Source: Candidatus Sumerlaeia bacterium (GTDB lineage: Bacteria; Sumerlaeota; Sumerlaeia; SLMS01). Taken from it: a stretch of 14,155 bases of DNA. The translations under genes were made by a program, and so were the position numbers. The stretch is taken from positions 1 through 14,155 of the forward strand of contig JBBQYG010000100.1 in NCBI GenBank assembly GCA_038208905.1, given 5' to 3'. Positions 1-14,155 of the stretch are shown piece after piece. The notes under the pieces were generated by a model, which had not been told where the DNA came from, searched no databases, and saw only the letters and a list, made by a program, of their open reading frames with translations. Numbering within the stretch: the stretch's first letter is position 1; each line of letters opens with the position of its first letter.

Positions 1-364
1 CCTGCTCCCTCACCAACATGTCGGGCACGGAAATCACGGGGGGGGGGCTGGGCTGGGGTTTCTCCGCGAAGCGCGCGTCGCGGTCTGACTTGCGAAGGTG
101 CTCGTAGGAGATGTTTCGGGCCATCGTGTGGAGCCATCCCGCCAAGCGGGAATTCGTCCGCAGGTTGCCGAGGGTAGAGAAAGCCCGTATGTACACGTCG
201 TGGGCGATGTCCTCGGCCTTCTCGGGGTCGCGTGTCACTCCGAGGGAGGTGGCGAAGATCATCTGGCGATGGGGCTCGATGAGGCGCCAGAAGGCGGAGG
301 CGTCTCCATCGAGTGCCCGCCGCAGGAGTGCGTCGCGGGTGATATCGTCGAGCGTGGGATTCAT
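1..364 (-). CDS. ECF-subfamily RNA polymerase sigma-70 factor, N-terminal part (region 2 plus linker); 3' end runs off the window
   Basis: Manual translation from ATG at 364-362, with no stop to the edge: MNPTLDDITRDALLRRALDGDASAFWRLIEPHRQMIFATSLGVTRDPEKAEDIAHDVYIRAFSTLGNLRTNSRLAGWLHTMARNISYEHLRKSDRDARFAEKPQPSPPPVISVPDMLVREQ. The motifs GD..AF..L, AEDI..DV.I.A and GWL..MARN...E.LRK match ECF sigma region 2. An SD-like GGTGAGGAA lies 6 nt upstream. Absent from the ORF track, probably because there is no stop codon in the window. Confidence 0.92.
   Translation of the reverse strand, partial: MNPTLDDITRDALLRRALDGDASAFWRLIEPHRQMIFATSLGVTRDPEKAEDIAHDVYIRAFSTLGNLRTNSRLAGWLHTMARNISYEHLRKSDRDARFAEKPQPSPPPVISVPDMLVREQ
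38..47. repeat. G10 homopolymer (C10 on the coding strand, encodes S-PPP) in the sigma2-sigma4 linker
   Basis: Sequence reads aaatcac-gggggggggg-ctg; the sigma frame stays open through it. Confidence 0.9.
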
Positions 365-3056: not shown

Positions 3057-3992
3057 TTGCCCGACAACCCGACACTCCCCCGCATCACCGTGGTGGTGCT
3101 GTCATACAACAGCGCGTCGTTTCTGCAAGGCTGCCTCGACGCGCTGGAGCGGTCGCGGGGCGTGGAGCTTGAAATCACCTGCGTGGACAATGCCTCCGCG
3201 GATAAGAGTCACGAGATCGCGGAGAAGCACCCCGCAAAGCCGGGAGCGATTCACTCGGAGAAGAACCTCGGCTACAGCGGCGGCAACAATCTCGGCTGGC
3301 CGCTTGGCTCTGCGCCCTATGTGGTTTTCATCAATCCCGATTGCCGCGTGATGCCCAATACGCTGGCACGGCTTGTTGCGCCGATGGTGACCGAAGCGGC
3401 AGTGGCGGTGTGCGGCGGGCTGCTGTATTACCCCAACCGGAGCGTGATCCAGCACGCGGGGGGGATCCTGCATCCCAATGCCATGTGCGAGCACTTTGGC
3501 ATGAACGCCCCCGACGCACCGGAGTTCCACGAGAGCAAGGACGTGGACTATGTCACGGGCGCGCTGATTGCGTTTCGCCGCGCCGACCTGGAACGGCTTC
3601 GCGGATTCGACGAGGACTATTGGCCGGCCTACTACGAAGAGACGGACCTCTGCTGGCGGCTGCGGCGCGAGGGGAAGCGAGTGCGCTATGTTGCCGATGC
3701 GGTCGCGTTTCACTGGGAGTCGCCCGGGCTGACGAAGAACTCGGGGCGCTTTGTGAGGACGAGCTATCGCAGCCGCATCCGCTTCGTGATTAAGAATTAC
3801 ACAGTGGGCGAGCTTCTGACATTGTTTCTCCCCTTCGAGGCAAAGTGGCTGGCGGGCCCGTTTGCGCGCGGTTTCCGGCTGGCGACATTCCGTTCATATT
3901 GCTCGGGCGCGGTGTTTGCTGTGCGTTGCCTGCTACGATTCTCACGACGCGGGCCCCAAAAGCCATCGCGCCCCGAAATGGCGCCGAATTGA
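3057..3992 (+). CDS. Glycosyltransferase family 2 (GT-A fold, WbbL/rhamnosyltransferase-like)
   Basis: TTG start. Motifs ITVVVLSYN, VDNASAD, NLGYSGGNNLG, FINPD, DYVTGA and GFDEDY..YYEETDLCWR. Sugar specificity cannot be determined from the sequence. Confidence 0.92.
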   Translation: MPDNPTLPRITVVVLSYNSASFLQGCLDALERSRGVELEITCVDNASADKSHEIAEKHPAKPGAIHSEKNLGYSGGNNLGWPLGSAPYVVFINPDCRVMPNTLARLVAPMVTEAAVAVCGGLLYYPNRSVIQHAGGILHPNAMCEHFGMNAPDAPEFHESKDVDYVTGALIAFRRADLERLRGFDEDYWPAYYEETDLCWRLRREGKRVRYVADAVAFHWESPGLTKNSGRFVRTSYRSRIRFVIKNYTVGELLTLFLPFEAKWLAGPFARGFRLATFRSYCSGAVFAVRCLLRFSRRGPQKPSRPEMAPN

Positions 3993-5764
3993 AGGTTCTG
4001 AAGCCGCTTTATCCCTACATCCGGCGATACAGATGGAGCATTTCCATCGGTATCCTATTCGTGCTCATGGCCAACGCACTGGGGCCGGTGGTGCCCGCGC
4101 TGCTGGGCGACGCGGTCAACGCCGCCGAGAAGCGCCAGCTTTCGTCCGATGAGCTTTGGCTCTACGCGAGCCTGCTGGTCTGCGTGGCGGCCCTGGCCGG
4201 GTGCTTCCGGTTCCTGATGCGCCGCGTGTTGATCGACGTTTCGCGAGATGTGGAGTTCGATGTCCGCAATGACTTCTTCGAAAAGCTCCAGGGGATGGAC
4301 CCCGCGTTCTTTGACGACAACAACACCGGCGACCTGATGAGCCGCGCCACCAACGACATGGATCTGCTGAGGATGCTGATCGGCCCGGCGGTGATGTATT
4401 CCGCCAACACGATCTTCGGCCTGCCGCTGACGATGGTGTGGATGCTGGCGCTGGACTGGAAGCTGACCCTGATGGCGATGGTGCCGCTGCTGGGGCTGCC
4501 GCCGCTGGTAAAGTTCTTTGGAGCGCGGACGCATCTGGCGTCGAAGGCGCAGCAGGATTCCTTCGGCGAAATGACAACGATGGTGCAGGAGAACCTCGCG
4601 GGAATCCGCGTGGTGAAGGCCTATCGCCAGGAGCGGGCGGAGGAGGGGAAATTCCGGGAACGGAACGAGGTATATATTCGCCACTCGCTCGCGCTGGCGC
4701 GGCTTCAGTCAATGTTTTTTCCTTCGATCCGCCTGCTGGTTGGGCTTGGCTATGTTATCCTGCTGCTCGTCGGCGGGCGCCAGGTGATGACGGGCGACTT
4801 GGAGGTGGGCACGCTGCTCTCGTTCCTACTCCTCTTTGGCATGATGGTCTGGCCGCTGATCGCGGCGGGGTGGGTCATCAACCTGATCCAGCGCGGCATG
4901 GCGTCGCTTCAGCGCATCGAGAAGATCCTAGGCAGCGAGTCGATGGTAAAGGAGCCCAGCGGCCCCGCGCGCATCCTTCCCGCGCGCGGCGTGGACATAC
5001 GCGCCATGGGCCTGCAATTCAGCTATCCCGGCACCACGACTCCCCAACTGGCGGACATCAATCTGGACATTCCGGCAGGCAAGACGATCGGCATCGTGGG
5101 CCCCGTGGGTGCGGGAAAGAGCACGCTGGTGCACCTGCTGGGAAGGTTCTACCCGGTGGAACGCGGCATGCTTTACGTGGGCGGAATCGACATCAACGAT
5201 TGGCCAGCGCTGGAGCTGAGGAAACGCATCGCCTTTGTCTTTCAGGAGACGTTCCTCTTTTCCGACTCGATCGGGTGGAACATTCGTTTCGGAACCTCGG
5301 AGAACGCCGCCGACGAGGCCGTTCGCGAGGCCGCGCGCCGCGCACAGGTGCATCCCGACATCGCGGGGTTCCCGAAGGCATACGACACCGTGCTGGGCGA
5401 GCGCGGAGTGAACCTTTCCGGTGGGCAGAAGCAGCGGGTCTCCATCGCGCGCGCACTGCTTCGGGATGCCGAAATCCTGGTGCTGGACGACTCACTCTCC
5501 GCCGTGGACACGCACACGGAAGAGGCCATCCTTCGAGAGTTGAAGGATGCAATGGCGGGGCGGACGACGTTCCTGATCTCTCACCGGATATCCACAGTGG
5601 CGATGGCCGACGAAATCGTCGTTATCGAGGAGGGCCGCATCACCGAACGCGGCACCCACGAGGAACTGATCGCGCAGGGCGGACTCTATGCCACGCTTCA
5701 TCGAAAGCAGCAGACGGAAGCCGCGATCGAGCAAGAGGACTTCGACGGGGAGGCTCGGGCATGA
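3989..5764 (+). CDS. ABC exporter, fused TMD+NBD, MdlA/YheI-like subunit of a heterodimer (591 aa)
   Basis: Start reassigned to TTG 3989 (TTGA overlap with the GT2 stop), giving MKVLKPLYPYIRRYRW. Six-TM domain with TGDLMSRATND, Walker A GPVGAGKS, signature LSGGQ, Walker B ILVLDD, H-loop ISHR. Confidence 0.93.
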   Translation: MKVLKPLYPYIRRYRWSISIGILFVLMANALGPVVPALLGDAVNAAEKRQLSSDELWLYASLLVCVAALAGCFRFLMRRVLIDVSRDVEFDVRNDFFEKLQGMDPAFFDDNNTGDLMSRATNDMDLLRMLIGPAVMYSANTIFGLPLTMVWMLALDWKLTLMAMVPLLGLPPLVKFFGARTHLASKAQQDSFGEMTTMVQENLAGIRVVKAYRQERAEEGKFRERNEVYIRHSLALARLQSMFFPSIRLLVGLGYVILLLVGGRQVMTGDLEVGTLLSFLLLFGMMVWPLIAAGWVINLIQRGMASLQRIEKILGSESMVKEPSGPARILPARGVDIRAMGLQFSYPGTTTPQLADINLDIPAGKTIGIVGPVGAGKSTLVHLLGRFYPVERGMLYVGGIDINDWPALELRKRIAFVFQETFLFSDSIGWNIRFGTSENAADEAVREAARRAQVHPDIAGFPKAYDTVLGERGVNLSGGQKQRVSIARALLRDAEILVLDDSLSAVDTHTEEAILRELKDAMAGRTTFLISHRISTVAMADEIVVIEEGRITERGTHEELIAQGGLYATLHRKQQTEAAIEQEDFDGEARA

Positions 5765-7650
5765 GCACGACCGCGGAGAAGTTCCAGAGGGACCGGCTCG
5801 AGCGCTATCGCGAGGAGGAGCGGGAGTCTCTCCAAAAGCAAGGCGACCTAAAGCAGACAACGCGCCTGGTGAAATACTTGGCGCCCCGCCGCCACTTGGT
5901 AGGGCTCTGTATCGCGATGTCGATCGCGGTGGCGCTGCTGACGCCGCTGCCGATGCTGATCATCATGTACAGCATCGACCACTATATTATGAAGGGCAAC
6001 TATCACGGACTGTTTGCGATGGCGGGATGGCTGCTGCTGGCAGAGATTCTTATCTTTGCGGTGGACAGGACGAACACCGTGGTGATCGCACGCATCGGAC
6101 AGGAGACGATGCGCGACCTGAGGATGGAACTTTTCCGCCACATCCAGCGCCAGTCGCTGCGCTTCTTTGACCGCAACCCGGTGGGCCGACTGATCACGCG
6201 CCTGACCAGCGACGTGAACGCGCTGAACGAACTCTTCTCCCAAGGTGTCGTCGGCATCTTTCAGCAAGTATTCTCCCTGATCGTGATTGCCGGAGTTCTG
6301 ACCTACTACAATGCGTGGCTGGCGCTCTATCTGGTGCCTGTGCTGCCACTGATCGCACTGGCGTCGTGGAACTTCCGGAACAACGTCTTCCATTCCTACC
6401 GCCTCACGAGAGTGCGACTGTCGCGCATGAACACCTTCATGCAGGAGAACATCACGGGAATGCGGACGGTACAGGCAAACGCGAGGGAACGCCCGCAATT
6501 CTCGATCTTTCGCGGCCTGAACGATGCGAACCGCGAGGCACACCTCCAGACAGTCTTCCAATACGCGCTCTTCTTCCCGGTGATCGAAGTGATCTCCGCG
6601 CTCGGCCTCGGGATCATCCTGTGGCGCGGCGGCATGATGTACCTCTCGCCGGAGGCATCCACCACGCTCACTGTGGGGACGCTCGCTCTCTTCGTGCAGG
6701 CGCTGGAGCGGTTCTTCCAGCCGATCAAGGACCTCTCTGAAAAGTACAATGTGGTGCAGTCCGCCATCGCATCGAGCGAGAGACTCTTCGCGCTACTGGA
6801 CACCAAGCCCGCCGTGGAAGATCCCGCCGAGCCCGTGGCGGTCGCGCCGCTGGCCCACTCCATCGAGTTCCGCGACGTGTGGTTCGCCTACAACGACGAG
6901 CAATGGGTCCTGAAGGGTGTCAGCTTTCGCGTCGAGAAGGGTCAGACCGCGGCAATCGTCGGCCCCACGGGGAGTGGAAAGACCACGCTGATGTCGCTCC
7001 TCTGCCGGTTCTATGACATCCAGAAGGGTGCTATCCTGATCGACGGCGTGGATATACGCGAGATGCGTCAGGAGGACCTTCGCAAGAAGATCGCCATCGT
7101 GCTTCAGGACGTGTTTCTCTTCTACGGCACGATCGCCGAGAATGTCAGGCTCGGCGAAACGACGATCAACGATGCGCGCATAGAGGAAGTCTGCCGAGAG
7201 ACTGGCTTCGACCAGTTCGTGCGGCGCTTCCCAAAGGGCTACGCAACCGGTGTCCGCGAACGCGGCGCCACGCTCAGCACGGGCCAGAAGCAGCTCCTCA
7301 GCTTCGCGCGCGCGCTGGCCTTCGATCCCGAAATTCTGGTCCTCGACGAGGCCACCGCCAACATCGACACGGAGTCGGAGGAGCAACTTCGCCGCGCCGT
7401 CGCCAAGCTCTGCGATGGCCGCACCTCCCTCGTCATCGCCCACCGGCTCTCCACCATCCAGCGCGCCCACAAGATCCTCGTCATCCACCACGGTCACTTG
7501 GCCGAGGAAGGCAACCACGAGGAACTTCTCGCGAAGGGTGGGCTGTATAGAAAGCTGTACGACTTGCAGTATAGGGAGCAGGGAATGGGGACCGGGGAAT
7601 TGGGAACGGTGCGGGAGGGCGGAGCAGTTGGCAGGATCGAGGCCCGGTAG
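5761..7650 (+). CDS. ABC exporter, fused TMD+NBD, MdlB/YheH-like subunit of a heterodimer (629 aa)
   Basis: Start ATG 5761 (ATGA overlap with the upstream stop, GGGGAGG upstream). Motifs FFDRNPVGRLITRLTSDV, Walker A GPTGSGKT, signature LSTGQ, Walker B ILVLDE, IAHRLSTI. Confidence 0.93.
   Translation: MSTTAEKFQRDRLERYREEERESLQKQGDLKQTTRLVKYLAPRRHLVGLCIAMSIAVALLTPLPMLIIMYSIDHYIMKGNYHGLFAMAGWLLLAEILIFAVDRTNTVVIARIGQETMRDLRMELFRHIQRQSLRFFDRNPVGRLITRLTSDVNALNELFSQGVVGIFQQVFSLIVIAGVLTYYNAWLALYLVPVLPLIALASWNFRNNVFHSYRLTRVRLSRMNTFMQENITGMRTVQANARERPQFSIFRGLNDANREAHLQTVFQYALFFPVIEVISALGLGIILWRGGMMYLSPEASTTLTVGTLALFVQALERFFQPIKDLSEKYNVVQSAIASSERLFALLDTKPAVEDPAEPVAVAPLAHSIEFRDVWFAYNDEQWVLKGVSFRVEKGQTAAIVGPTGSGKTTLMSLLCRFYDIQKGAILIDGVDIREMRQEDLRKKIAIVLQDVFLFYGTIAENVRLGETTINDARIEEVCRETGFDQFVRRFPKGYATGVRERGATLSTGQKQLLSFARALAFDPEILVLDEATANIDTESEEQLRRAVAKLCDGRTSLVIAHRLSTIQRAHKILVIHHGHLAEEGNHEELLAKGGLYRKLYDLQYREQGMGTGELGTVREGGAVGRIEAR
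7574..7608 (+). repeat. Five tandem GGGA-NNN heptamers (left arm of an imperfect inverted repeat)
   Basis: GGGAGCA GGGAATG GGGACCG GGGAATT GGGAACG, inside the 3' end of the second ABC gene. Confidence 0.85.
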
Positions 7651-7706: not shown

Positions 7707-10700
7707 TCACTTCTTCCCCGTATCCGTGTCCCCAAAGAATATATCCGAATCCAGTGCCTTCAGCGCGTCGCGGCGGAGGATGGTTTCATTGAGGCGCTTG
7801 CGGGTTTTCTGGTCGCTTGGGTTGATGGCGAGGATGCGTTCACAGTTGGTGACGGCGTGGCCAAGGTCATTGCGGGCAATGTAGATATCGACGGCGATGG
7901 ACAGTTCGGAGAGCGTCTCTGTGATTTGTCCCAGTTGCTTGTAGACATCGGCGATCTTGACCCGGACCTCGGCGTTCTGGGGATTGACGGCGAGGATGTC
8001 CCGATAGTCCTCGACGATCTGGGCGAGGGCCTCCTCGCCTTCCTTGCGATCCATCTCGTCGAGCGTCCCCTTAAGCAGATCGGTGGGACTCTTCTCTCCG
8101 CCGATCATGGCGATCTGAGTATCTGAGAGATCGAATTCCTCCGCGGCATCCCGCCCAAGGGGCCGATCGGCAAGGCCGAGCGTGGGATCGCCTTCGGCGA
8201 GGCGACGGCGCACCTCCGTGCCAGTGCGCGTTTGCGTTGCGGTGAGCATCTCTTTCACCGCCGTGTTGCGGGGATCGATGGAGGTGACGAGCTGGAACAT
8301 GGCCACTGCCTCGTCCACTTCGCCCGCGTCCACCAGGTTCTGGGCAAAGGCGAGCATGTCATCCACGATCTCGTTCAGCTTCCCGGCCTTGGGATACTGG
8401 CGGATGAATTCGCGCTTGGCCTCGAGATCATTGGGGGCGAGCGCGATAACCTTGCGCAGGATATCGATGGCACCGCGGAAGTCGCCCAAGGCGATCAGTC
8501 GGCGGGAAAACTCGCGGTAATCCGGGAGGATATCTATTTCCTTCCCGATGGGCAGGTATACATGGAAGAATTCCCGCCAGGCGGCGGTTTCGTCGGGAGA
8601 GATCGCGAGGAGGCGGCGGTACTCGGCCAACGCAAGGTCGGCCATGCCACGCTCGGCATAGCTCTTCGCGAGGACGCGCATCTCCGAGTATGCCTCTCCG
8701 CGCTGGCCCGAGGCTATCAACAGCTGGATATAGCGGCGGCGATGGTCCACGTCGAGGGGATCGACCTCGAGCAGTTCGCGGAGCGCATCGGTCTGGCCGT
8801 TCTCGTCCCGGCGGGCCGTATAGACATCGAGCGCCTCGCGAAACTCGCGCGCCGCGGCGCCACGCGACTCGGCGGCCTTGTGGATGCGGCCAAGCGTCAT
8901 GTGGTACTCGGTATCCTCGACCACGTGGGGGCGTATTCGGTCCAGGGCCGAGAGCGCCCTTGGGAACTTCCCCTTGAGGAGGAGCAGCTTGGCGAGGCGG
9001 ACGCCGGTGATGATCGCCTGCTGGTGGTCTGGCCGCGCGATGTGATACTCTAGCTGGGCCTCCATGACATCCTCGCGGTCGGGCGCGAGCTCGACAAGGC
9101 GATCGAAGTATGTGCGAGCCTCGGCCTGGGAACCATTGCGACAGAGGAATACGGCGACCTTGAGGTAGTCGTCCACGAGGTGGAACTCGTCGAGGAACTG
9201 GCGCATGATTTGGATATACCGCAGGCGGACGGCGTTGTCGTCGGGGCTGAAGGTGAGGATCTTGGCGAGCGTCGCGCCGCACTCCCGCATGTCGCCGCGC
9301 TGGTACAGGAGGTCGGCCAGCTTGCGCAGGTTGGCTTCGATGGACTCGCGGTCGCCATCGACCTCGGTTAGTTCAACAAGCTTTGCAAGGGGGGCGGGTT
9401 CCTCCGGCAGTATGGCGACGATCTCTCTCGCCACCGCGGCGGCGCGCTCGCGATTGCCAAGCTGGAGGTGCGACGAGATCAGTTCCTCGGAAAGCGCGAC
9501 GGCGTCCTCGTTCATGCCGAGCTGGCAGAGGAGCCTCAACTTGATCTCCCCCGCGCTTACGTCGCCGGGGTGCAGGTCCAGCGCGCCATCGATCTCCACC
9601 AGAGCCTCCTCTCGCCGCCCCTCGCGCTCATACTCGCGGGCAAGGTCGGCAAGCTCGTGGGAGGCTAGTTCGGGAATGCCCGCCGCCTCGTACAGTTCCG
9701 CTGCGCGGCGGCGGAGCGCCTTACCCGTGCCGAGAAGGACGATCCCCTCGATCATCAGGTCGCGAGCCTTGCCAATCTCGCCCTCTCCCACGAGATAGGT
9801 GAGCCCATCGACGAAGACTTGAGTGCCCTTCTCGACTTGATTGCGTCCGCGGTAGAATGTGCCTAGACGGCGGAGGACATCAACGTTGGCGGGTGCGATC
9901 CACGCGGCCTTCAGGAGACCCTCCTCATAGAGGTCGGTGCGGTTCTCCTTGTCGGCGAGATCGCTCATGCGGAGGAAGCTGCGGAGCGCCTTCTCGTCGT
10001 CGCCGACGATGGCGGCGAGCTCGCCCGCGCGGCGCAGGAGGCCAGGTTCGCGGTGATGGATGAGGGCCTGCTCCAGCCAGCCGAGGGCGCGCTCGTGCTC
10101 CTTGCGGGACTGGTGGTAGTCGGCGAGCCAGAGCAGCGCGGCGAGGGCCTTGCCCTTCTGCTTGGCGGCCTCCGCGAGGAACACGGTGAGGCGGCGTGGC
10201 TCGGGGTCGCTCGGCAGCGCGGAGCTGGCTTCCTCCGCTGCGGCGAGTGCTCCCTCCACATCGCCCGCTGTCTGGAGCAACTGGGCCACGGCGACGAATC
10301 GAGCGCTGGCCTCCTTCAGCTTTCCAAGGGCGAGGAAGTGGGCACCGGCCTGGAGGTTGATCGCGGGATTGTTGGCATCAAGCCGAAGGGCCGAGAGGAG
10401 CGAGGCTTCCTCACCCGTGGCGTCGCCGGCCCGGCCTTGGAGTTCGGCAAGCCGCGCGTAAGCCGACGCGGCGGGGAGATCGTCTTCCACCGATTCGAGA
10501 GCGCGCGCGTGGAGAGCGTGGATCGGGCGCGACTCGGGGTCGGCCAGCGCGGCGGAATGAAGGCAGGAAATGCAGGACCGAAAGTCCCCAGCGGCGGCGA
10601 ACGTTTCGGCGGCGGCGAGGAGGTGAGCGGCGCCGTTGGCCGAATCTCCTGCCTCGACATAGGCGCGGCCGAGCTGCTCGCGTATCTGTGGGTCGCCGGG

Positions 10701-13700
10701 CTCGAGTTCGTCGAGGCGCTGGAGCACCTCGACGGCCTCCATGAAGGCGGCCTCGCCGACGTAGAGATGGTGCGCCTCGCGCAGCAGGTCGGTGGCCTGG
10801 TCCGTCTGGCCCGACGCGATGAGAAGTTCTGATAGGCGGAGGCGCGCCTCCAGATTGAGACGGTCGCGCTGGGCGATTTCCCGCCATAGATCCGTGGCCT
10901 GGGCGATATCCCCCTGGGACTCGAGCGCGCGGGCGAGGCGCGCGGCGGCATCAAGAGCGCCCGCCTCGTTGCCCGCTTCCTCCCGCGTGCGGCGAAGACC
11001 GGCGAGCGCGGGCGGGTGATCGGCTTTCAATTCGGTGGCTTGGAGAAAGGCGGCTTCCGCGCCCGCCAGATCCTGCGATTTGAAGGAGGCGTCCCCCCAG
11101 CGGATGAGCAAGTCCATCGCCTCGTCTCCGCGACCGAGCGCCCGCAGGTCGCTTGCGAAACCGCGAAGGGCGGCGATATCCTCGTCGTCGATGGAGAGTA
11201 TCTCGCGATAGGCCCGCTCAAGCTCCTCTGTGCGGCCCGCGGCGGCGAGAAGTGGTATGAGCGCGCGGCACTCCAGGACAATCTCGCTCAGCGGATCATC
11301 CCCGCGCTGCCTGTAGCTATCCAGCAGGCGCAGACGCAGATCAACGTCGGCGGGGCGCAGGCGCACGGCGCGAGCAAGGGCGGCGCTGGCCTCCGCCAGA
11401 TCGTCGGAGGAGGCATTGGACTCTGCGAGGGCGATCCACTGCGCGACGGCTTCCTCGTCCCGGCCCATTCCCTCGTCGGCGAGGGCTCGATAGCGGCGCA
11501 ACCTGCGGTGCCGCGCCAGAAGTTCCTCGTAGGATTCGAGGAGGTCGGCGAGCGGTTGGAAGGCGCGACCCTCGAGTAGGATGGCCGCGGCAGTGGACAA
11601 TACGGCGACGGCCTCGGCCTCGGAATCCTGCTCGATCTGCAGCGCAACGAGCCGAGGCACCAGGCGGGCGTAGTCGGCGAAGCGGCGCGCTTCCGCATAG
11701 AGATCGAGGAGGAGGACTTTGAGTTCCGGCGAAGCGTGGTTGCCGGAGACGGCGGCCTCGCCGGAAGTGATCGCCTCGTCGAGCTTGCCGCGCTGCTGCA
11801 TGGATTCGAGAAGTTGAATCCGGATCGATGCGGCCTCGTCGGACCGCCCCGTCGATTCCAGCACCGTGGCGAGCCGAGTCATGGCCTCGTCGTGTGCGGG
11901 GTCGAGTTCCAGCAGCCGCCTGAGCACCTCGACGCTGGCTTCCGGGCGCCCCTTCTTGTCGTTGACGCGGACGAGGCGGAGGAGCGCCTCCACCGCCCCG
12001 GCACGGTCGCCGTTGGCTTCGCGCAGGTCGGCGTTGAGCCTCAGTGCCTCGGGGTTGGAGGGGTCGAGGCGGAGCATCTCCCGCGCGGCGCGCAGGGGCT
12101 TTTCTGCGTCGCTTCCCGCCAGGCTTGCGACCCTGTGCCAGGCGGCGACGGCGCCGGGTCGGTCGCCGGTCTGCTCGCACAGGTGGGCCAGCAATTCCCA
12201 AGCATCGATGTCGCCTGGGCTCCATGTCATGCAATCGCGAGTCACGGCGACAGCGAGGAGCGGCAAGCCCGTCTCGCGGAGTTCGCGCGCGAGCGGCAAT
12301 GCCACGGCAACTGCCCCGGCGGTATCGCCGAGGTTGTGAAGTTGAAGGGCATAGCGGCGGCGCAACTCGTGGTGGTCGTGGTCGAGCTCCACGAGCGCGT
12401 GCGCCCCCGCACGATACTCCTCCGCCGTGGGAAATCTGCCCGCGGCAAGGCTCAGCGCCTTGAGCAGGAGTGGACGGGATTCCTGGACTTCGCCCTCTCG
12501 GGAGAGGATTCCCACAAGCAGCGCAAGATCGTCGTAGTCATCGGGCTCCAGATGGCGGAGCTGTTCGAGTGCCTCCCGTGCGTCGGCTGGGGCGGTCTCG
12601 GCAACACGCCGCGCAAAGACCCGAAGCCGGTCCACGGCCTCCTCTGGCTGGCCCGCGGCGACGAGTATCTCCACGGCGGGCTGGAGGAACCCGTAGCTCT
12701 CCGGGTTGGCATTGGCAAGCGAGAGGCGGAGCGAGAGCGCGTCCTCCCAGGCGCCGGAGCGGGAAAAGCCATCGCAGAGTTCCTCGGCGAGCGGGATCGC
12801 CTCGTCGAGGCGACCAAGCGCGAGCAAGGCGTGCACACGGCAGCGGCGGACCTGTGGCAAGTCGGCGAGCGATGCGAGGTCGCCCGACGGCTCGGCGAGG
12901 GCCTCTTCCGCCCGGCCAGTGACGACGAAGGCGTCGAGGGCGCGCAGGAGGGACTCGAGGGATTCGGGCTCGTTACCCGAAGTACTGTGAACGCGAGCGC
13001 GTTCGAGGTGAAGCCGTGGGGAGGTCGGCTCGCGATCAAGCTGATGCGAGAGGGCGGCAAGCGCCGAATCGAGATCACCGCGCTCGATCGCACGGGCGCG
13101 AAAGCGATCAGCAATGGCGGTGGCCTGATCGGCGCGGTCGTGATTGCGTAGAATGTCCACCAGCCGAAGGACCGATGGCCAATCCTCCTCGTAGTGATTC
13201 TCGTACTCGCGACAGAGCCGTTCGGCGTCTTCGCTGCGCGATTGCTCCAGCGCGGCGGCAAGGAGCGTGACGTATTCGGCGGCGGCCTCTTCGGAGCGAC
13301 TGCGCGCCACGAGGGCCGTGGCCAGCCGGTGACGGTAGTCGTCGTTGGAAGGATCGCACTCCAGCACGCGTCGCAGAGCGTCGATGGCCGACTCTCCGTC
13401 TCCACGCTTCTCGAAAAGCTCCACGGCAAGGGCCAGCGCTGCGATGGCTGCGGCGGTGTCGCCCTGTGCGCGCAATACCTCGCCGCGCGCCTCGAGGAGT
13501 TCGGGGGACTCGGGGGCCGACACGATCAGTCCGTCGATGGCCTGCAAGGCAAGACCGAGGTCTCCGGCGGCCAATAGGTCCTCGCTGAGCGATGCGATTT
13601 CGGCGGCGAACTGTTCGTGGCGCTCTCCCTCGACAAGCAATCCCGCAAGCAGGACGCGAGCGGAGAAGCGCGTGGGATCGGCGCGGCGGACGGCGAAGAG

Positions 13701-14155
13701 CTGGGCGACGGCGTCGGTGTTTCGACCGTCGGCGATGAAGATTTTGGCGAGCGATTCGCGATAGGGATTGGCGGCGCGGGAATCGTCGCCCTGGGCCAGC
13801 AGTTCGATAAGTCGCGCGAGGATTTCGACGTCGTCGGGTAGCAGATCGGCGAGGGCGCGAAGGATGCTTTCGTCCGACTCGCCGGTCTGCGCAGTGGCAA
13901 GGAGCGCGAGGCGGTAAAGGCGTATCGCTTCCACCGTGTTGCCCAACTTGCCATGCAGCGCGGCGAGCGACTCCTGGCGCGCGCGCGGGAGGGCTCCGAT
14001 GGAATCGAGCTGCGCCAGCGCGGTGAAAGCTGTCTCGCGGTCGCCGACGGCGAGCGACAAATCCGCCGCCTTGGCCAGATCGCCGACGGCGGACGCACGG
14101 CTCTCCACATTGGCGGCGAGGAGGATGCCCCGTTGCGCATGAAATCGGGCGGACC
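7707..14155 (-). CDS. Giant TPR-like alpha-solenoid protein built from 54-aa repeats; 5' end lies outside the window
   Basis: The 2133-aa ORF stays open upstream of GTG 14108 to the window edge (SARFHAQRGILLAAN-V), so it is at least 2148 aa. It has recurrent xP(D/S/N)(D/N)...LA..Y...G...A motifs. No transmembrane segment or catalytic domain was recognised in the visible part. Stop TGA at 7709-7707. Confidence 0.92.
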   Translation of the reverse strand, partial: SARFHAQRGILLAANVESRASAVGDLAKAADLSLAVGDRETAFTALAQLDSIGALPRARQESLAALHGKLGNTVEAIRLYRLALLATAQTGESDESILRALADLLPDDVEILARLIELLAQGDDSRAANPYRESLAKIFIADGRNTDAVAQLFAVRRADPTRFSARVLLAGLLVEGERHEQFAAEIASLSEDLLAAGDLGLALQAIDGLIVSAPESPELLEARGEVLRAQGDTAAAIAALALAVELFEKRGDGESAIDALRRVLECDPSNDDYRHRLATALVARSRSEEAAAEYVTLLAAALEQSRSEDAERLCREYENHYEEDWPSVLRLVDILRNHDRADQATAIADRFRARAIERGDLDSALAALSHQLDREPTSPRLHLERARVHSTSGNEPESLESLLRALDAFVVTGRAEEALAEPSGDLASLADLPQVRRCRVHALLALGRLDEAIPLAEELCDGFSRSGAWEDALSLRLSLANANPESYGFLQPAVEILVAAGQPEEAVDRLRVFARRVAETAPADAREALEQLRHLEPDDYDDLALLVGILSREGEVQESRPLLLKALSLAAGRFPTAEEYRAGAHALVELDHDHHELRRRYALQLHNLGDTAGAVAVALPLARELRETGLPLLAVAVTRDCMTWSPGDIDAWELLAHLCEQTGDRPGAVAAWHRVASLAGSDAEKPLRAAREMLRLDPSNPEALRLNADLREANGDRAGAVEALLRLVRVNDKKGRPEASVEVLRRLLELDPAHDEAMTRLATVLESTGRSDEAASIRIQLLESMQQRGKLDEAITSGEAAVSGNHASPELKVLLLDLYAEARRFADYARLVPRLVALQIEQDSEAEAVAVLSTAAAILLEGRAFQPLADLLESYEELLARHRRLRRYRALADEGMGRDEEAVAQWIALAESNASSDDLAEASAALARAVRLRPADVDLRLRLLDSYRQRGDDPLSEIVLECRALIPLLAAAGRTEELERAYREILSIDDEDIAALRGFASDLRALGRGDEAMDLLIRWGDASFKSQDLAGAEAAFLQATELKADHPPALAGLRRTREEAGNEAGALDAAARLARALESQGDIAQATDLWREIAQRDRLNLEARLRLSELLIASGQTDQATDLLREAHHLYVGEAAFMEAVEVLQRLDELEPGDPQIREQLGRAYVEAGDSANGAAHLLAAAETFAAAGDFRSCISCLHSAALADPESRPIHALHARALESVEDDLPAASAYARLAELQGRAGDATGEEASLLSALRLDANNPAINLQAGAHFLALGKLKEASARFVAVAQLLQTAGDVEGALAAAEEASSALPSDPEPRRLTVFLAEAAKQKGKALAALLWLADYHQSRKEHERALGWLEQALIHHREPGLLRRAGELAAIVGDDEKALRSFLRMSDLADKENRTDLYEEGLLKAAWIAPANVDVLRRLGTFYRGRNQVEKGTQVFVDGLTYLVGEGEIGKARDLMIEGIVLLGTGKALRRRAAELYEAAGIPELASHELADLAREYEREGRREEALVEIDGALDLHPGDVSAGEIKLRLLCQLGMNEDAVALSEELISSHLQLGNRERAAAVAREIVAILPEEPAPLAKLVELTEVDGDRESIEANLRKLADLLYQRGDMRECGATLAKILTFSPDDNAVRLRYIQIMRQFLDEFHLVDDYLKVAVFLCRNGSQAEARTYFDRLVELAPDREDVMEAQLEYHIARPDHQQAIITGVRLAKLLLLKGKFPRALSALDRIRPHVVEDTEYHMTLGRIHKAAESRGAAAREFREALDVYTARRDENGQTDALRELLEVDPLDVDHRRRYIQLLIASGQRGEAYSEMRVLAKSYAERGMADLALAEYRRLLAISPDETAAWREFFHVYLPIGKEIDILPDYREFSRRLIALGDFRGAIDILRKVIALAPNDLEAKREFIRQYPKAGKLNEIVDDMLAFAQNLVDAGEVDEAVAMFQLVTSIDPRNTAVKEMLTATQTRTGTEVRRRLAEGDPTLGLADRPLGRDAAEEFDLSDTQIAMIGGEKSPTDLLKGTLDEMDRKEGEEALAQIVEDYRDILAVNPQNAEVRVKIADVYKQLGQITETLSELSIAVDIYIARNDLGHAVTNCERILAINPSDQKTRKRLNETILRRDALKALDSDIFFGDTDTGKK

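Follow-up and report, generated by a model that had tools for sequence, protein, structure and literature searches.

The window analysed here, the whole 14,155-nucleotide stretch, is the entire contig C100 of a Candidatus Sumerlaeia genome of 4.2 Mb in 301 contigs. Its minus strand carries most of a giant gene, present as a stop-free frame that ends at a stop codon at 7707-7709 and is cut at its 5' end by the end of the contig. The frame at 7707-14153 covers three quarters of a ~2,930-residue protein, from the C-terminal side. The family of this protein is characteristic of Candidatus Sumerlaeota, the only phylum in which it has so far been found, and the residues of the frame are collinear with residues 810-2932 of a 2945-aa orthologue (P0024). 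The whole or part of the window is contained in 20 DNA sequencing runs from 15 studies, no RNA run is listed as containing it, and a promoter and terminator scan of the 3' intergenic region of the giant gene returned zero sites. The features of the gene, with residues numbered in the 2148-residue protein and model confidence given as the predicted local distance difference test (pLDDT) and the predicted template modelling score (pTM), are as follows.

7707..14153, minus strand: giant gene, C-terminal 2148 residues
8292..14111, minus strand: main array of 54-residue three-helix units, residues 15-1954, 37 of 38 units, from the unit map and autocorrelation
8763..9410, minus strand: four consecutive units, residues 1582-1797, modelled alone (12 helices, mean pLDDT 96.8, pTM 0.86)
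8067..8180, minus strand: probably disordered linker, residues 1992-2029 (pLDDT <50 for model residues 513-550; poorly conserved and of variable length in the alignment)
7710..7985, minus strand: conserved C-terminal module, units at 2057 and 2111 plus a terminal helix (pLDDT 91-97)
7734..7775, minus strand: terminal motif RRDALKALDSDIFF (family consensus KRDAFKALESAILF), one of the two search patterns behind the 19 loci described below

The strongest lag in a BLOSUM62 autocorrelation of the 2148-aa protein (30 shuffles) was 54 residues (z=17.2), with weaker lags at 108 (z=12.4), 20 (z=11.2) and 34 (z=10.1). A 54-residue repeat had been proposed by an earlier, sequence-only reading of this DNA, which suggested an autocorrelation as a check and named a dominant period of 34 residues as the result that would speak against it; the autocorrelation peaked at 54, lag 34 being secondary. 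Every Pro-turn landmark that had been named was found in place at a spacing of exactly 54 residues (105/159/213/267/321/375; 1528/1582/1636/1690; 1798/1852/1906/1960; 2057/2111). A 54-position hidden Markov model (HMM), seeded with 14 units and iterated on the giant protein, mapped 38 units, close to the roughly 35 estimated before, and successive units were exactly 54 residues apart in 26 of 37 cases. The majority residues over 30 aligned units were P2, G19, A24, L31, A32, G39 and A44, in agreement with the Pro at position 2 and the Gly at positions 19 and 39 that had been picked out by eye, and the same pattern is found in the family profile. At the DNA level, no 162-nt repeat was found by Tandem Repeats Finder, and identity to the first unit is only 11-26% for the remaining units of the giant protein, which marks the array as old and diverged; with the 54-residue spacing held family-wide, the earlier description of the units as old, diverged and constrained in length is borne out. 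The whole protein carries about 40-50 copies of what is a 54-residue, three-helix variant of the tetratricopeptide repeat (TPR).

How this unit relates to the TPR can be read from a family profile of 1812 units, taken from 78 proteins, with the consensus P-D-D/N-L-E-A-R-E-R-L-A-E-L-L/Y-E-E-L-G-R-T-E-E-A-V-E-E-L/Y-L-R-L-A-E-L-Y-L-E-A-G-D-L-E-E-A-L-E-A-L. In this consensus the block L-A-x-x-Y/L-x-x-x-G-x-x-x-x-A is present twice, offset by 20 residues, and the second copy is followed by an Ala/Leu-rich helix B and the Pro turn. The repeated block presumably corresponds to TPR positions 7, 8, 11, 15 and 20, that is, to helix A plus the turn. As judged from the consensus, therefore, the 54-residue unit consists of two copies of the TPR helix-A half-motif and then one helix B, which gives substance to the earlier division of the unit into 34+20 residues; the duplicated half-motif accounts for the secondary lags at 20 and 34. 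The Pfam matches of the 2148-aa protein, all above their cut-offs (TPR_19, 194.6 bits; TPR_14, 181.8; TPR_2, 108.3; TPR_8, 89.9), fall into two registers, with the TPR_2 alignment beginning at unit position 5 and those of TPR_8, TPR_1 and TPR_14 at position 25, so that the middle helix of the unit is shared by two overlapping TPR motifs. When the 54-position unit profile was compared with the PDB, canonical TPR and pentatricopeptide repeat (PPR) chains matched positions 1-34 or ~28-54, and no PDB chain matching the whole unit profile was found. A PDB sequence search with the C-terminal 669 residues gave 0 matches at E<=0.001, and a search of the ESM Atlas returned generic TPR clusters only.

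Two AlphaFold2 models, based on 37-row alignments of orthologous C-terminal regions, were obtained, one of the C-terminal 669 residues (mean pLDDT 89.2) and the other of the four units listed above. Both show three helices per unit, as had been suspected from the letters, with predicted lengths of ~13, 17 and 14 residues and turns of 3-4 residues. In a fold search of the four-unit (216-residue) model against 48,161 PDB representatives, about seven consecutive helices fitted the three-TPR domains of Sti1, PP5, HOP and FKBP52 with a root-mean-square deviation (rmsd) of 2.1-2.5 Å over 105-123 residues (3upv_A, 2.2 Å over 111 residues; 1a17_A, 2.4 Å over 116; 1elw_B, 2.3 Å over 106; also 1p5q_A). 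The best matches over all twelve helices were gamma-SNAP (2ifu_A, Z 13.5, 6.3 Å over 209 residues) and Sec17 (9cru_G, Z 13.0, 5.6 Å over 215). By comparison, the superhelices of consensus TPR (CTPR) proteins, CTPR8/16, and OGT (9qhb, 8chy, 1w3b) matched the twelve-helix model in Foldseek with query TM-scores (TMq) of 0.27-0.34 and an rmsd of 15-17 Å. For the 669-aa model, Sec17 (9nlu_I) superposed at 2.9 Å over 157 residues and an 8-repeat CTPR (8chy) at 11.3 Å over 257. On these predicted models, local helix packing is TPR-like and the long-range path departs from the canonical TPR superhelix. The sequence-only reading had expected a different solenoid geometry and had named a predicted ordinary TPR superhelix as the contrary outcome; its expectation thus holds for the models at the scale of twelve helices and fails locally, where seven helices pack as in an ordinary TPR domain.

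The geometry of the unit may offer an explanation for this departure. If a unit has three antiparallel helices, these would run opposite to their equivalents in the adjacent units, which amounts to a near two-fold screw between units, and TPR curvature should therefore not accumulate along the array. The array should thus be an extended twisted ribbon like that of SNAP/Sec17, and not a CTPR-type superhelix, if the predicted models are followed. A 108-residue super-period was sought in an odd/even test of 88 proteins of 2000 residues or more and was rejected, mean z declining from 19.5 through 16.1 and 13.2 to 11.4 at lags of 54, 108, 162 and 216. The lack of an odd/even super-period fits equivalent surroundings for all units and an extended twisted ribbon. 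The structural description of the protein as a solenoid of three-helix, 54-residue units is, on the strength of these models, highly probable.

The array is followed by a non-repeat stretch (residues 1960-2056) that contains the linker of ~40 residues, and then by the C-terminal module, which ends in the helix KRDAFKALESAILF and is better conserved than any other part of the family, 16 columns being invariant among 15 orthologues. The giant protein has a net charge of -112 and an isoelectric point of 4.9, its relatives having net charges of -84 to -299. No enzymatic domain was found in it in Pfam or NCBIfam, and no NCBIfam equivalog reached its cut-off, in line with what had been said of the visible part of the protein.

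The missing N-terminus, which the sequence-only reading had proposed to retrieve, was located on contig C168 with the N-termini of homologues as queries; a tblastn search of the window protein against its own genome gave one weak TPR paralogue only. On C168 (L021:1-2373, minus strand), a frame of 791 codons, open at base 1 of the contig, encodes the N-terminal 784 residues of the giant gene, counted from the first Met. These residues align with 1-795 of P0024, and residues 16-2142 of the window protein align with 810-2932. In three related genomes, the giant gene is preceded by the same gene as the C168 frame. The last 5 bases of C100 are the first 5 of C168, and the two frames then coincide on one Ser codon; no exact overlap of 10 nt or more was found between these contig ends. 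Taken together, the collinearity with P0024, the upstream gene and the 5-base overlap indicate a whole protein of ~2,931 residues.

In the homologues, the N-terminus is a domain of ~100 residues with C-P-x-H ... C-x(5)-C. The N-terminus of P0004 matches Pfam Zn_ribbon_DnaG PF01807 (27.6 bits, cut-off 24.9), and a profile of eleven N-termini matches the zinc-binding domain of Aquifex DnaG (2au3_A residues 7-96, E 1.3e-4). Among the CHC2 ligands, the three Cys are invariant in all 11 aligned N-termini and the His is found in 10 of the 11.

The family was traced by several searches. A word-indexed search found 17 large relatives, of which 15 (P0002-P0016, 2,447-3,660 aa) have a dominant period of 54; the period is also seen, more weakly, in P0017 (1,236 aa), and the weakest relative found, P0018, is an ordinary TPR protein with its strongest lags at 68 and 34. 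In an exhaustive HMMER comparison with 1.84 billion representatives, the C-terminal 669 residues matched 110 proteins at E<=1e-30, and 54 or 108 was the top lag in 137 of the 145 listed matches of 400 aa or more. Among the 77 HMMER matches with both an initial Met and a CHC2-like motif, units were most often 54 (656 times), 108 (214), 162 (78) or 216 (39) residues apart, and relatives that share the strict 54-residue spacing are only 21-30% identical. The lengths of these zinc-motif relatives fall in narrow classes (about 1,361; 2,598-2,607; 2,943-2,956; 3,039-3,120 aa), and such classes, kept despite low identity, hint at selection on the total unit number.

With the last 297 residues as query (E<=1e-10), a match was found in 41 of 75 genomes of the phylum, usually at one locus, and in 23 of the 43 good-quality genomes; two family-level groups gave no match (0/13 and 0/7 genomes). 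A scan of 185,579 species genomes for two C-terminal motifs gave 19 confirmed loci, 18 of them titled Candidatus Sumerlaeota or Sumerlaeia and one 'bacterium'. The relatives are labelled 'tetratricopeptide repeat protein' in their sources, just as the earlier reading had expected of automated annotation. Two proteins from metagenome-assembled genomes titled 'bacterium' (P0011 and P0012, 2,670-2,730 aa) have the 54 period at z 29-32, lack the zinc domain and contain long, acidic Glu/Ile/Ala-rich inserts; the 54-residue unit may thus occur outside the orthologous group of the giant protein.

The rest of the window is occupied by the following genes.

2-364, minus strand: sigma-70 region-2 fragment
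544-1650: GT4 MraY/WecA-type transferase
1663-2976: coiled-coil protein with an OmpA domain
3057-3992: GT2 glycosyltransferase
3845-5764 and about 5752-7650: two adjacent ATP-binding cassette (ABC) exporter genes with a slight overlap, convergent on the giant gene

The downstream block of GT4, OmpA-domain, GT2 and ABC exporter genes is retained in two relatives (L014 and L020) of the four with a usable downstream flank and is absent in 2 genomes of another family; a fifth stretch, L011, mostly misses the flank. On C168, the gene directly upstream of the giant gene (L021:2428-4848, minus strand) encodes a product whose last ~200 residues are 62-63% identical to counterparts in three related genomes, and these counterparts start like a signal peptide. 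Pfam gave a marginal SPOR match only for this product, and in other families of the phylum another gene lies upstream.

Further frames with the CHC2-like domain were also seen elsewhere in the genome. A 1385-aa paralogue (L022:1170-5324, minus strand; contig C46:10169-14323) combines a CHC2-like zinc domain and ~11 detectable 54-residue units with a C-terminal Bac_DnaA ATPase (PF00308, E 8e-63), and no DnaA DNA-binding domain was seen in it; the canonical DnaA of the same genome is on C22. This type of C-terminus was found in ten representatives among 150 matches, seven of 1,354-1,365 aa, two of 1,749 aa and one of 2,150 aa. A 538-codon frame on C19 (L023:1030-2643, plus strand) has a divergent CHC2-like N-terminal domain and a few TPRs, and a short frame on C11 (L058:1501-1755, minus strand) consists of a zinc domain only (PF01807, 20.9 bits, below cut-off).

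Three other explanations for the giant protein were weighed against the three-helix solenoid. The protein could be an ordinary TPR superhelix, in which the 54 period merely records an ancestral duplicated block of one and a half TPRs and has no structural meaning. Pfam TPR families far above their cut-offs, the fit of seven helices to canonical three-TPR domains at 2.1-2.5 Å, and a PrsT profile that aligns collinearly, one helix after another, over 256 profile positions and 267 residues would all be expected in this case. However, the 54 spacing or its multiples are held across proteins that are 21-30% identical and across units that share as little with the first as given above, and a spacing kept despite such divergence requires selection on unit length. 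In addition, the CTPR and OGT fits over twelve helices are poor, and P0018, an ordinary TPR protein, peaks at 68 and 34. An ordinary superhelix is therefore unlikely, yet it is the most serious of the three.

Three helices per unit are also found in ARM/HEAT-like repeats, in which a short first helix lies across the hairpin and which would not be TPR-derived, and the Pfam families ARM_TT21 (58.3 bits) and ARM_TT21_5th (50.2 bits) both score above their cut-offs. The predicted helices are nevertheless similar in length and joined by short turns, the sequence carries TPR half-motifs, and the superpositions on TPR domains point to a helix 1 that is antiparallel to helix 2. Moreover, the 50 structural neighbours listed, which are not an exhaustive set, all belong to TPR, SNAP or designed TPR-type proteins and include no classical ARM or HEAT protein, and this explanation appears very improbable. 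Equally improbable is a periplasmic or envelope TPR protein that acts with the neighbouring genes in polysaccharide or pilus export, in the manner of PrsT, BcsC, PilF or PgaA. While PrsT (TIGR02917) is the best NCBIfam row and the GT4, GT2, OmpA-domain and two ABC exporter genes lie in the window, in a block kept in two related genomes, the PrsT score of 137 bits is far under the cut-off of 312.2, the neighbours are convergent and not co-directional, downstream synteny is found in only 2 of the 4 usable relatives, and the protein starts with a zinc-binding domain, not a signal peptide.

The three-helix solenoid is thus retained, and its possible function can be considered. The protein is very acidic and begins with a zinc domain instead of a signal peptide, and it is therefore probably a long cytoplasmic scaffold, as far as can be judged from its sequence. 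In the mechanism proposed, a helix-A half-motif, a second helix-A half-motif and a helix B with the Pro turn would form the three antiparallel helices of each unit, the middle helix serving as B toward the first and as A toward the third. Adjacent helices would pack as in TPR domains, and the body would be one long alpha-solenoid. The result would be a long scaffold or tether of defined length whose two ends differ: the zinc-binding domain could anchor one of them, perhaps to DNA or the replication machinery, and the C-terminal module the other. This anchored scaffold or tether function is put forward tentatively, and we regard it as rather doubtful. Only two things suggest the link to DNA or replication, namely the type of the N-terminal domain and the paralogue with the DnaA ATPase. 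Taken as a whole, structure plus scaffold role provides the best explanation, and we consider it reasonably probable. A broader joint reading would make the unit curvature-cancelling and the protein, with ~2,900-3,100 residues and an assumed rise of ~1 nm per helix, a nearly straight acidic rod of ~100 nm, whose zinc domain would sit on DNA or the replisome and whose C-terminal module would hold the other end. Such a length-defined ruler or cytoskeleton-like strut could form, with the DnaA-type paralogue, a phylum-specific system for the placing or timing of replication, a speculation that we think improbable.

Several observations weigh against parts of this interpretation. A Z of ~13 is a level that helical repeats reach through their common arrangement alone, and the straight ribbon is deduced from symmetry reasoning and fold-search numbers on predicted models. 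That the body is strongly acidic speaks against its binding DNA over its length. In the domain encoded on C168 itself, Trp replaces the His (CPCW, with a 3-residue insertion), the three Cys being kept, and a Pfam zinc-ribbon match is absent for this domain. The putative join of C100 and C168 depends on a 5-nt overlap and on orthologue collinearity. The neighbouring genes offer no clue to function, and their conservation is limited to the family-level group.

Few repeat folds are as well understood as TPR arrays, which find wide use in protein design. In a family where a strict three-helix unit of 54 residues is kept over ~50 copies despite deep divergence, TPR helices are tiled in a different way, and the odd number of helices per unit should alter the long-range shape. 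The giant protein therefore represents a TPR-built family that departs from the 34-residue, two-helix definition and, in the predicted models, from the canonical superhelix, features that the name 'tetratricopeptide repeat protein' hides in public annotation. No 54-residue TPR-type repeat and no mention of this family were found in the literature, as covered by titles and the beginnings of abstracts outside subscription journals and supplements. We know of no cultured and studied member of the Sumerlaeota, and the giant gene, one of the largest conserved genes in this phylum, provides a concrete entry into its cell biology, given the replication-type zinc-binding domain at its start and the paralogue fused to a DnaA ATPase.

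Comparison with known systems places the giant protein closest to the TPR. Its half-motifs have the small and large residues of helix A, the Gly turn, the Ala-rich helix B and the Pro turn of the TPR, and neighbouring helices show antiparallel A/B packing in the predicted models. It differs in its period (54 instead of 34), in its three helices with a duplicated helix A and a middle helix ~3 residues longer, and, in the predicted model, in the path of twelve helices off the CTPR/OGT superhelix. The twisted hairpin sheet of alpha/gamma-SNAP and Sec17 is the best long-range match of the models, in shape only, whereas SNAPs have nine such helices and a globular end and act on SNARE complexes; SNAP PF14938 had no row among the 25 of 28 Pfam families listed for the giant protein. 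ARM repeats, of three helices and about 42 residues with a short helix 1 across the hairpin, share the odd number of helices per repeat, but the three helices of the giant protein are similar in length and their motifs are TPR-type. The first ~100 residues of full-length family members resemble the PF01807 domain of DnaG, but no TOPRIM or helicase-binding domain follows the zinc domain, and the genome has a separate canonical DnaG. SgmX and AgmK of Myxococcus are long cytoplasmic TPR-type scaffolds without an enzyme domain. A literature search on AgmK gave no relevant paper among those listed, and the C-terminal module has a weak partial match to SgmX (NF052243, 47 bits), of which the giant protein is not a member, the cut-off being 1800 bits.

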